Assembly (NCBI RefSeq): GCF_049075655.1
Contig: NZ_CP157522.1
Location: 1,280,001 to 1,344,000 of the forward strand
Length of the DNA stretch: 64,000 nt
Direction: 5' to 3'
Source: Methanothermococcus sp. Ax23
Lineage (GTDB): Archaea; AGJL01; Methanococci; Methanococcales; Methanococcaceae
Positions 2,950 through 22,447 of this stretch are shown one piece after another (position 1 is the stretch's first letter; the number at the start of each line of letters is the position of its first letter). The position numbers were made by a program, and so were the translations under genes. Below the pieces are notes generated by a model that worked only from the letters and a program-made list of their open reading frames with translations, did not search any database and had not been told where the DNA came from.

Positions 2950-2972
2950 CTCGGAAGGTCGCAACTTTTTAT

Positions 2973-3296
2973 TACGATAAACCGCCGAGAAAGCCAACGA
3001 TTTTAATCGTTATACAAAACATAGTTTTGTAAAATCTCTTATGAGATTGGATGAGAGGCGGACATTATATCGGCTAGTAAGTAGTAAAATATAAATATGT
3101 GAAGATTAGTAGTAAGTAACGCTACCAGTCCAAGTTCTAATGGGTAGGGTTAGTGAAAACTCTACCGCTGGTAGTGGTTGAAAGTGCATAGCGTAGCCCT
3201 GAACCCATTAATGGGTAGGGGTAGTGGGTTTGGCCACCCATGTAGGGTTAAACCCTACTAATGAACCCCACGATTTTAATCGTGGGAGTAGGTCAG
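2973..3296 (+). mobile_element. Non-autonomous MITE derived from the tnpB element family of 20976-22447
   Basis: Left end nearly identical to 20976-21068; right end and omegaRNA nearly identical to 255-360; preceded by TTAT, ends in TCAG; no ORF. Confidence 0.92.
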
Positions 3297-4045
3297 AGAG
3301 ATTTAGCAATTTCTTCCACTTTCTTATATACTTCATTATTTTCATCTATATCAAACAGAGGTTTGCCTACTAAATCATATTTTGATATTTCTTCATTATA
3401 GGGCAATTTCCCTATTAAATTTAACCCCAATTCTTCGGCGTTTTTCTCAACTATATCTTTGGTTTCATCATTTACTTTATTTGCAACAACACATATATCT
3501 TTGAATTTTATTTCGAGGTCATTCGCTAGTTTTTTTATTCTTTTAGCAGTCCCTAACCCTCGCTTTGAAGCATCACTCACCACTATCATGGTATCTACAT
3601 TTTGAGTGGTTCTTCTACTCAAATGCTCCAAGCCTGCTTCCGTATCTATAACCACATAATCATAGGATTTTGCAAGATTATCTATAATCTGCCTTAACCA
3701 GTTATTCACACTACAATAACAACCACTTCCTTCGGGTCTCCCCATAACAAGCAAATCAAAGTTCTCTGTTTCAACCATAATTTCATATATTCTTCCCAGT
3801 AAATAATCCTGTTTTGATATGCCAGAAGGCAATTTATCATCAGCCACTAACTGTTTTAACTCTTCTCTTATATCCCCAATAGTCCGTTCTACTTCAACGC
3901 CAAGAGTTTCGGGGAGATTTGAATCGGGGTCAGCATCAACAACAAGCATATTGTGCGTCTTTTTTGATAATGCTTTTACAAGTAATGTGGAAAACATGGT
4001 TTTACCAGTTCCTCCTTTTCCGCTTATTGCTATTATTTTGGTCAA
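3293..4045 (-). CDS. cooC: CooC/AcsF nickel-insertion ATPase (CO dehydrogenase maturation factor)
   Basis: Deviant Walker A GKGGTGKT, GCYC motif, DTEAGLEH. Confidence 0.92.
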   Translation of the reverse strand: MTKIIAISGKGGTGKTMFSTLLVKALSKKTHNMLVVDADPDSNLPETLGVEVERTIGDIREELKQLVADDKLPSGISKQDYLLGRIYEIMVETENFDLLVMGRPEGSGCYCSVNNWLRQIIDNLAKSYDYVVIDTEAGLEHLSRRTTQNVDTMIVVSDASKRGLGTAKRIKKLANDLEIKFKDICVVANKVNDETKDIVEKNAEELGLNLIGKLPYNEEISKYDLVGKPLFDIDENNEVYKKVEEIAKSL

Positions 4046-20921: not shown

Positions 20922-20975
20922 AAATAAAATAAAAAAATAAAAAATATAATAAGAGAGGTAAAAGCTTTATATTAT

Positions 20976-22447
20976 TACGATAAACCGCCGAGAAAGCCAA
21001 CGATTTTAATCGTTATACAAAACAAGGTTTTGTAAAATCTCTTATGAGATTGGATGAGAGGCGGACATCATTTTTTTTATATGCTCCACTACATAATATA
21101 TGAGTGTAATTAGAATAATAGCATATATATAAATTTGGTGAATTCCATGCAAGTAACCAGAGTGCTGACAATAAACCTAACCAGAAGTTTGAGTAATGAA
21201 CAATTAACAATCATAAACCATTTAACCTACTCGGCATCAAAACTCTGGAATGTATCAAACTACGAAGTAATGCAACGAAACATTAAACCAAATAAAGCAG
21301 ATGTTCAAATGAAAAACAACTTCTGGTTTAAAAATCTTCATTCACAGTCAGCACAGGCAGTATGTCAAAAACTCACAATAGCATGGGATAACTTTTTTAA
21401 ACAACACACTAAAAGACCACGATACCAACCAAAAGATGGACACTTTCCAGTAAAATGGAAAAAACAAGGTTTCAAAATCATAAACAATAAATTAAGATTA
21501 TCATTATCTAAACAAACTAAAAACTATCTCAAAGAAAAGCATGGTATTAAGTCCAAGTATTTATGGGTAGAGTTATCGAAAACTCTACCGCTTGATACCA
21601 TGCAGGTTAAAGAAGTTGAAATAGTTCCACATAAAATCTACGGGATAACTTATTATATGCTTCATTTAATCTATAAGAAACCAGTAATTCAAGAACCTAT
21701 CAAAGAAGGTAATATATTAAGTATTGATTTAGGAATTAAGAATTTAGCAACCGCAGTAATTAATACGGGCAGTGCGATAATCTACGATGGAAGAAGGTTA
21801 ATTTCTAAATTTCGGTGGTTTGCTAAAAGTAAAGGAAAAATCCAATCTACCCTAACAAAGCAAGAGTTAAAATATAATAAACGATTATCCCGCTTAACAG
21901 TAAAGGAGAAAAACTACACTAAGGATTATCTACATAAAATAAGTAAAATGATTATCGATTTTGCAGTAGATAATAAAGTTTCAAGGATTGTAATCGGCGA
22001 GTTAAACAAAGGCATTTCAAGTATTGACATTGGAGATAGGGTTAATCAGCAATTGCATAGAATACCTTTTGGTAGGTTAGTAAGTATGATAATGTATAAA
22101 GCAGAAGAAAAGGGATTAACAGTAGAACAGGTTAATGAATCTTATACTTCTCAAACTTGTAGTAATTGTGGTGTGGTTAAAAAGAGCAATAGGAAGTATA
22201 GGGGTTTGTATGTGTGTAGTGAGTGTGGCATGGTTTTGAATGCAGACATTAACGGGGCTTTGAATATTTTAAAAAAAGTATCGCATAAGGTAGCCCTGAA
22301 TCTCCTAAACGGAGATAGGGGTAGTGGGCTTGGCAACCCATGTAGGGTTAGACCCTGCTAAAATTAGACGAAATCACTTCGTGATTTCGTTGCTCGCTTA
22401 CTACCGTAAGCGAGAACCCCACGATTTTAATCGTGGGAGTATGTCAG
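20976..22447 (+). mobile_element. IS200/IS605 (IS1341-type) tnpB-only element, complete copy
   Basis: TTAT before the left end, subterminal hairpins AACGAT-TTTA-ATCGTT and CCCACGAT-TTTA-ATCGTGGG, terminal TCAG; no tnpA; boundaries from comparing copies (about 1 nt uncertainty). Confidence 0.9.
21147..22361 (+). CDS. tnpB: TnpB RNA-guided nuclease
   Basis: RuvC-I SIDLG, RuvC-II region VIGEL, zinc finger, RuvC-III NADING; GGTGA RBS. Confidence 0.93.
   Translation: MQVTRVLTINLTRSLSNEQLTIINHLTYSASKLWNVSNYEVMQRNIKPNKADVQMKNNFWFKNLHSQSAQAVCQKLTIAWDNFFKQHTKRPRYQPKDGHFPVKWKKQGFKIINNKLRLSLSKQTKNYLKEKHGIKSKYLWVELSKTLPLDTMQVKEVEIVPHKIYGITYYMLHLIYKKPVIQEPIKEGNILSIDLGIKNLATAVINTGSAIIYDGRRLISKFRWFAKSKGKIQSTLTKQELKYNKRLSRLTVKEKNYTKDYLHKISKMIIDFAVDNKVSRIVIGELNKGISSIDIGDRVNQQLHRIPFGRLVSMIMYKAEEKGLTVEQVNESYTSQTCSNCGVVKKSNRKYRGLYVCSECGMVLNADINGALNILKKVSHKVALNLLNGDRGSGLGNPCRVRPC

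Follow-up and report, generated by a model that had tools for sequence, protein, structure and literature searches.

A conserved sense-strand structure within tnpB of one clade of IS200/IS605 elements and its retention in gene-less derivatives

The window analysed here is a stretch of 64,000 nt from the genome of Methanothermococcus sp. Ax23 (contig NZ_CP157522.1, positions 1,280,001 to 1,344,000). It carries a gene-less miniature element (MITE; 2976-3296) inserted after TTAC, and a full-length IS200/IS605 element (hereafter the IS) of the tnpB-only, IS1341 type with an intact tnpB gene (Table 1). The MITE, given as 324 bp in a first-pass annotation of this DNA, is 321 bp long. Its left (LE) and right (RE) ends show 94-97% identity to those of the IS in BLAST comparisons, and its right part (3186-3296) matches sequence of the IS (20979-22447). 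In these respects it resembles PATEs, described as core-deleted IS605 elements in the accessible part of PMC3119063: its subterminal palindromes are like those of the resident IS, inverted terminal repeats are lacking, all 27 aligned copies follow TTAC and end in GGTCAG, 321 bp is too short to code, and an omegaRNA-type scaffold is present. No target duplication was seen by eye at the 27 aligned copies, and their flanks differ. Within the same alignment the LE and RE hairpins co-vary among the MITE subfamilies of this genome. Some copies possess the hairpin CGATTTTAATCG at LE and RE alike, others CGACTTCAGTCG at the left end and CGAGTTCACTCG or CGACTTCAGTCG at the right end, and the first scaffold stem occurs in two compensating versions (ACCCA/TGGGT and TCTCC/GGAGA). 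The window also opens within a further IS belonging to this family, whose 3' portion occupies 1-364 (genome 1278848-1280364, locus L012), and a 19-nt unit, TTGATATATTCCGTAGGAG, is found twice in tandem directly upstream of the MITE (2912-2949).

Table 1. Features of the MITE and of the full-length IS, in window coordinates.
Feature	Position	Strand	Basis or remark
TTAC target/TAM-like flank of MITE	2972-2975	+	Precedes 27/27 aligned MITE copies
MITE left end	2976-3065 (end approximate)	+	97% identity to IS 20979-21071
MITE subterminal LE hairpin, AACGATTTTAATCGTT	2996-3011	+	Within left end
TATA-like box, TATAAATA	3090-3097	+	Read in sequence; kept across MITE copies
Module in MITE, 57 nt	3120-3176	+	Fold and covariation
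MITE module, outer parts	5' arm 3121-3128; U3129.G3167; bulge 3130-3142; 3' arm 3168-3175	+	RNA fold
MITE module, inner helix	Stem 3143-3151 with 3158-3166; loop 3152-3157	+	RNA fold
Linker from module to scaffold in MITE	3177-3192	+	Sequence
OmegaRNA-type scaffold and right end of MITE	3193-3296	+	Matches IS 22290-22447
MITE RE hairpin	3267-3286	+	Element terminates GGTCAG at 3296
Full-length tnpB-only IS200/IS605 (IS1341-type), 1469 bp	20979-22447	+	After TTAC at 20975-20978
tnpB, 404 codons, intact	21147-22361	+	
Module inside tnpB, codons 131-152	21539-21603	+	Fold z -7.38; dip in synonymous differences
tnpB module, outer parts	5' arm 21539-21551; loop 21552-21565; G21590; 3' arm 21591-21603	+	
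tnpB module, inner helix	Stem 21566-21574 with 21581-21589; apical loop 21575-21580	+	
OmegaRNA scaffold and right end of IS	22290-22447	+	Overlaps tnpB 3' end; RE hairpin 22418-22437
Two-hairpin mini-insert, ~51 nt	22363-22414	+	Between scaffold and RE hairpin

The first-pass annotation had noticed that the MITE is more than a left end joined to a right end, and this is borne out: a block of it (3120-3176, hereafter the module) matches tnpB at 21539-21603, and a 43-nt core of the block is identical to tnpB 21550-21592. Described PATEs consist of fused ends, or of ends plus a C-terminal tnpB remnant, whereas the MITE here additionally keeps a promoter and this internal piece of tnpB. The opening bases of the linker that follows (GGTTGAAAGT) are similar to the IS sequence 3' of the IS module (GGTTAAAGAAGT). 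Only two copies had been counted before, but the 1.67-Mb genome possesses 37 copies of the module core, 28 in MITEs and 9 in ISs. Our covariance model finds 39 matches in the genome, namely these 37, a diverged tnpB paralogue (L014; intact, 72% at the amino acid level) and one decayed MITE-like copy. In seven of the nine IS copies tnpB is split near codon 77-79 by an insert of ~50 nt, and five of these seven have one to three stem mismatches in the module, compared with none in the two intact copies or the MITE copies; module conservation is therefore not universal. The genome (G000) gives no match to the Y1 (TnpA) transposase, PF01797, despite its 28 MITEs and 10 tnpB elements, and a C-terminal tnpA-like remnant ahead of the diverged tnpB of L014 is the only tnpA trace in it.

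Both modules fold alike, as previously described from these two copies, with an outer stem, a one-sided loop of 13-14 nt, an inner stem of 9 bp and a hexaloop whose 3' end is GAA. The outer stem differs in sequence and nevertheless pairs (GCTACCAG/CTGGTAGT in the MITE versus GCATGGTATTAAG/CTTGATACCATGC in the IS), while the inner stem is formed by GGTAGGGTT or GGTAGAGTT pairing with AACTCTACC. The predicted RNA fold reaches -26.1 kcal/mol for the MITE module (z -3.84) and -31.8 kcal/mol for the IS module (z -7.38), none of 200 shuffles being as good in either case, and the reverse-strand folds are weaker (-16.7 and -25.9 kcal/mol, respectively). As modelled, two helices stacked coaxially, one of 8-13 bp and one of 9 bp, make up the module, with the one-sided loop between them. 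This loop had been read as 14 nt opposite 1 nt. Its one-sidedness holds, but in the RNAfold structure the U that opens the loop is paired to the single G on the 3' strand (U3129.G3167; each base invariant, 53/53), and the loop may instead be a 13-nt bulge. The loop consensus, U-C-C-A-n-G-U ... A-U-G, is near-invariant and faces the invariant G. Among 53 aligned matches, about half of them non-coding, U18, C20, U31 and the opposite G are present in all, C19 and G23 in 50, A21 in 49, U24 and G32 in 51 and A30 in 52, an invariance that is partly ascertainment, because the model and pattern searches that supplied many sequences of alignments A3-A5 require loop bases. Kink-turns have tandem G.A pairs on both strands, and the 11-nt tetraloop receptor has CCUAAG opposite UAUGG. 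The module is unlikely to be a kink-turn, since by eye its 3' strand offers only one G, while we take the loop CCAAG...UAUGG to resemble the two halves of the tetraloop receptor, without the U.

Several lines of evidence suggest selection on the pairing itself. In an ungapped MAFFT alignment of 28 distinct sequences (A2), which like the other alignments contains related sequences that are not independent of one another, 92.5% of the cells are paired, against at most 47.4% in a control in which the pairing partner is slid; double changes occur in 11 of the 22 pairs, and none of 500 shuffles reaches this. The model-fitted alignment of all sources (A5; 75 distinct sequences) gives 92.9% against at most 44.1%, with double changes in 19 of the 22 pairs, 0/500 shuffles reaching this and 98.8% pairing in the inner helix, but because it is fitted to the model and its sequences are related, these figures lean towards structure and are not probabilities. 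Covariation across homologues is thus strong in both alignments. In L014, four of the nine inner pairs are changed on both sides (GATAAGATT/AATCTTATC) at the cost of amino acid changes, and double changes in the homologues join synonymous to non-synonymous sites, for instance a silent CAT-to-CAC change (His) accompanied by ATG to GTG (Met to Val). Synonymous differences among 11 intact tnpB genes amount to 0.476 overall and dip at two places only, codons ~133-158 (0.17-0.29), which is the module, and codons ~378-397 (0.10-0.28), which is the known omegaRNA overlap. The non-coding copies behave similarly: 28 MITE rows have 89.7% of cells paired, a lower value because the outer five pairs are missing from the shorter stem of this genome, with double changes in 10 of the 22 pairs and the loop bases kept. 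Across the 17 core pairs, G.U or U.G cells number 55 and A.C or C.A cells 3, indicating that the folded strand is the sense strand, and one pair is G.U in 25 of the 75 sequences of A5. The proposal of the first-pass annotation that the module represents a third functional cis element is hence supported in the form of a selected sense-strand structure beside the end hairpins and the omegaRNA. On this comparative evidence the module is a real, selected third cis element, conserved as a structure in one clade of IS200/IS605 tnpB elements.

Our protein search of 40 genomes of the class identified tnpB homologues (59-71% at the amino acid level) in seven other genomes, and all nine loci that cover the region keep the fold at the same codons. 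The distant paralogues L003, L015 and L023 (30-38%) are without the module; the tnpB clade of L015 has a GGAATTC/GAATTCC hairpin at the corresponding place, with only two homologues in the 40 genomes. The covariance model recovered the module in 12 of the 40 genomes, and its matches outside tnpB are MITEs that share one architecture, LE-TATA-module-linker-scaffold-RE (seen in G021, G022, G024, G029, G033, G035, G036 and G039). The block is therefore the same in the other MITE copies of this genome and in the MITEs of other genomes, rather than a random fragment of tnpB. These other MITEs have a TTTTATATA box ~23 nt 5' of the module, a linker of ~16-20 nt and the end GTCAT after the RE hairpin, and their stems differ again, e.g. 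TTGCCCCCAG/CTGGGGGC with GGTGGGATT/AATCCCACC. Scaffold matches in five genomes, 22 in number, comprise four full ISs, 15 module-bearing MITEs and three module-less remnants, and each of these three module-less derivatives is single-copy. One genome harbours two MITE subfamilies with a common promoter-module half and different scaffold types. Many MITEs, and one intact tnpB (45 nt), have a two-hairpin insert of 41-47 nt in the apical loop of the module, which indicates that this loop is tolerant.

The module is also found in bacteria. A pattern scan together with the model detected it in Fervidobacterium thailandense, in eight copies, with TnpB at 48-52% amino acid identity. Among 151 scanned Thermotogota genomes, seven gave matches, of which four are convincing, one is a core-only decayed copy and two (L154 and L155) were rejected as unrelated perfect palindromes. 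One bacterial genome (G142) possesses two copies of a MITE in which promoter, module, linker, scaffold and RE follow in this order. The promoter is sigma-70-like (TTGACA-17-TATTAT, 11/12 matches), the leader ahead of the module is ~55 nt, the linker is 24 nt, and the module stems are ACTCCATTGAG/CTCAATGGAGT and GATAGACT/AGTCTATC. No tnpB homologue was found in G142. Its module is of the bacterial IS type, and this MITE therefore probably arose independently of the archaeal one; judged by their sequences, the same internal piece of tnpB has probably been retained at least twice, in two MITE lineages. Our pattern scan of metagenomes yielded 44 stretches, of which the model recognised 43. They contribute lineages at 52-57% amino acid identity with new compensatory pairs, and include mid-size deletion derivatives that keep the N-terminal part, module and scaffold. 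A 2.5-kb contig labelled as a Persephonella MAG (L125) has a tnpB with 65.5% identity and a module that does not differ from the one in L028, an archaeal g5 copy. It may represent either a transfer or a misbinned contig, and was left uncounted as a third phylum.

Searches against Rfam gave no match to the module, and, in agreement with the first impression that it fits no hammerhead, twister, pistol or HDV consensus, no Rfam ribozyme appeared at E values up to 10 for either copy; over the window, only a tRNA passes the gathering threshold. The HgcC family (RF00062) aligns to 3158-3304 with 20.5 bits (E 0.013), below its gathering score of 50, but this match covers mainly the scaffold and right end and overlaps only the last 19 nt of the module. 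HgcC has 14 such sub-threshold matches in the genome (best 29.6 bits), five of which also overlap the 3' part of the module. Gomes-Filho et al. tied HgcC and the sotRNAs to the right ends of IS1341 elements (accessible part of PMC4615843). The omegaRNA or reRNA, to which the earlier sotRNAs and HgcC belong, resembles the module as a structured sense-strand RNA of the same elements that overlaps tnpB and suppresses synonymous change, and it is likewise kept in gene-less derivatives, according to the accessible parts of PMC10055086 and PMC4615843. However, it is found at the 3' end, with the RE hairpin beside the guide as part of it, whereas the module occupies codons 131-152, ~690 nt upstream in the IS, and in MITEs is situated upstream of the scaffold, not inside it.

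TnpB has been described as cutting its own mRNA 5' of the omegaRNA and thereby yielding the omegaRNA, and in AmaTnpB mRNA a coding region modulates TnpB-omegaRNA activity (accessible part of PMC10278001). Like the module, this inhibitory region (nt 825-875) is a stretch of tnpB coding RNA, and it affects the TnpB-omegaRNA complex, but it adjoins the RuvC-II codons, pairing with the scaffold has been proposed for it, and the accessible part of PMC10278001 reports no conserved fold or covariation for it. The module, in contrast, is an autonomous hairpin that is not consistently complementary to the scaffold: in duplexfold comparisons of six elements, no site of pairing between module loop and scaffold recurred consistently. 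A kissing interaction or pseudoknot of the module loop CCAAG with the scaffold loop CUUGG was considered and rejected, as MITEs with CCACG keep the same scaffold loop, and that loop, by eye, covaries with the 3' tail instead. Our full-text literature searches turned up no description of a conserved structure midway along tnpB, nor of PATEs retaining one, though an earlier mention, e.g. in supplements, is possible. Judged from its sequence, the module is probably a new structured-RNA motif and a new component within a known system.

The usual archaeal spacing between TATA box and start would place the transcription start of the MITE near 3120-3121, and we infer that the transcript begins there, with the first bases of the module. 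The ~55-nt leader of the bacterial MITE indicates that the module as the exact 5' end is not general. In two small metatranscriptome runs, summed depths over Logan contigs, which cannot show RNA ends or levels, cover a repeated element and possibly include DNA, are 20.6 at 3100, 85-106 at 3135-3155 and 145 at 3257 (X1), and 81, 357-716 and 1096 at the same positions (X2), with greater depth over module and scaffold than at the spacer. Contig depths in X5 and X6, for which the run type is unrecorded, display no step from spacer to module (44.4 then 40.8 in X5; 64.5 then 46.8 in X6).

The structure exists, is selected in coding and non-coding copies, is strand-specific and in MITEs is kept with the scaffold. 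Most likely, as its sequence context suggests, it acts as RNA together with TnpB and the guide RNA. Its likeliest role would be to provide TnpB with a second site for recognition or loading on the omegaRNA-carrying transcript, a closely related alternative being a fold that protects or delimits the omegaRNA precursor. In autonomous elements the module is superimposed on tnpB codons 131-152, and in MITEs or PATEs it lies between promoter and scaffold; an omegaRNA is often encoded by PATEs and then depends on TnpB provided in trans (accessible part of PMC10055086), and the MITE would have to carry the module to compete for TnpB so supplied. The module is separated from the scaffold by ~20 nt in MITEs, or by 50 nt where the linker contains an insert (four copies), and by ~690 nt in the IS, and this variability, together with the promoter-module-scaffold design, points to an RNA function in cis that is insensitive to spacing. 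With omegaRNAs ranging from 79 to 466 nt (accessible part of PMC10278001), the ~690 nt in the IS also mean that the module cannot be a fixed structural domain of an omegaRNA of normal size. Its occurrence in archaea and bacteria implies a partner present in both domains, suggesting TnpB or shared RNA-decay enzymes. RNA as the active form, TnpB as the partner and the start of the MITE transcript at the module are what we infer from sequence comparison, and we consider there to be an even chance that the module works in this way, in cis with the guide-RNA system and irrespective of spacing, with TnpB recognition or loading as its likeliest task. More tentatively, these elements may define a TnpB clade with a second RNA determinant, a portable hairpin recognised on the guide transcript by TnpB or by shared RNA-decay machinery. 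If so, the module would give cis-preference to autonomous elements, parasitic MITEs would have to copy it to capture TnpB, and its fold could be used to control how TnpB is loaded in engineered systems.

An action as single-stranded DNA, with the top-strand hairpin aiding TnpA-type 'peel and paste' or the handling of the excised strand so that ISs and MITEs alike need it, appears unlikely. The folded strand is indeed the top strand, and since transcript and transposing top strand are the same, strand bias alone does not separate RNA from ssDNA. Moreover, transposition of IS200/IS605 elements proceeds through single strands and makes use of DNA hairpins (accessible part of PMC3119063), the module is kept whatever its distance to the scaffold, and the small two-hairpin inserts land in its apical loop as well as in other hairpin loops of these elements. 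Against this, G.U-type pairs are frequent in the module, both in the core pairs and in the pair that is G.U in a third of the sequences, whereas variation in the LE and RE hairpins among MITE copies, judged by eye, consists almost entirely of full Watson-Crick swaps, and the module, rich in G.U pairs, has no likeness to the LE or RE hairpins of the same element by eye or BLAST. In a genome without a Y1 transposase match, the five stem substitutions noted by eye in the unique sequences of its MITE modules are nevertheless all transitions to G.U, and in MITEs the module is always 3' of the promoter and 5' of the scaffold.

It is improbable that the module only regulates tnpB translation or mRNA fate, through ribosome pausing, autorepression or mRNA stabilisation, with the MITE copies idle by descent. 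Such a role would suit a very stable hairpin within the reading frame (-31.8 kcal/mol) that has a conserved ATG/GTG codon in its 3' arm, and it has a parallel in IS200, where an internal stem-loop hides the ribosome-binding site and regulatory stem-loops in the tnpA leader control tnpA. Those stem-loops are, as the module would be, RNA-level hairpins beyond the transposase-binding ends within the same superfamily, but they belong to the tnpA leader, while the module is inside tnpB and persists without any gene. The non-coding MITEs keep its pairing by compensatory change along with its loop bases, a second, bacterial MITE has also retained it, and the multi-copy MITE families all possess it, the module-less remnants being single-copy.

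A processing signal that makes an RNA end, either self-cleaving as in a small ribozyme or directed by a nuclease, is very improbable: invariant unpaired bases within a defined fold, and the processing by TnpB of its own mRNA 5' of the omegaRNA (accessible part of PMC10278001), would agree with it, but the module matches no Rfam ribozyme at E up to 10, is a single interrupted hairpin lacking a multi-helix junction and in the IS lies far from the omegaRNA 5' end. It is barely credible that the module has no function of its own, with its pairing a side effect of selection on the protein and the MITE block left by chance between two deletions and then multiplied along with the element. This reading would fit the derivation of all MITEs of one genome from a single founder and the conserved Ser and Trp codons in the loop, but is opposed by the double changes that tie synonymous to non-synonymous sites (CAT..ATG to CAC..GTG), the local dip in synonymous differences, the covariation among non-coding copies, the conservation from archaea to bacteria at ~50% protein identity and the at most 47% pairing of the slid controls.

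The module matters because Cas12 descends from TnpB elements, which are themselves under development as genome editors, and because the cis parts known in these elements are the hairpin at either end and the omegaRNA. Conservation of a third one from Methanococcales to Thermotogota, visible at the synonymous sites of tnpB and kept in two apparently independent MITE lineages, points to an as yet undescribed step in how guide RNAs are made, TnpB is loaded or the elements transpose. The module offers a direct test of the competition of gene-less PATEs for TnpB, its presence means that codon-optimising tnpB may remove a functional RNA, and with its working covariance model it adds a new family of structured RNAs to those available for annotation.

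Two further candidates were considered for the loop. An internal promoter (TATTTAT) was rejected because the motif is not conserved, g5 copies reading TTCCTAT, and a short ORF from the loop AUG was rejected because the inserts in MITEs have lengths that are not divisible by three. In the scaffold, by eye, the hairpin loop covaries with the 3' tail, UUGGCAA occurring with AUGUCA and UUGGCGG with CCGUCA (window 22325-22345 with 22438-22447; loci L026, L077 and L088), which looks like an omegaRNA pseudoknot that covaries between two scaffold types.

The two-hairpin mini-insert of the IS (22363-22414) belongs to a separate small repeat family, lies outside the module and is variably present among copies. 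Members of this family are 37-53 nt long and are also seen at L029 (2234-2351) and at loci L077, L084 and L088. They are located ahead of the RE hairpin, in the left end (where the repeat is missing from 6 of 27 MITE copies), at tnpB codon 77-79 in seven of nine IS copies and, in other genomes, in the apical loop of the module, once in frame (45 nt) within an intact tnpB. They recall the SMR-A repeats that target PATE/IS605 palindromes in Haloquadratum (accessible part of PMC3119063). The repeat has 32 BLAST matches in this genome, some of them stand-alone with a different but still pairing second hairpin.
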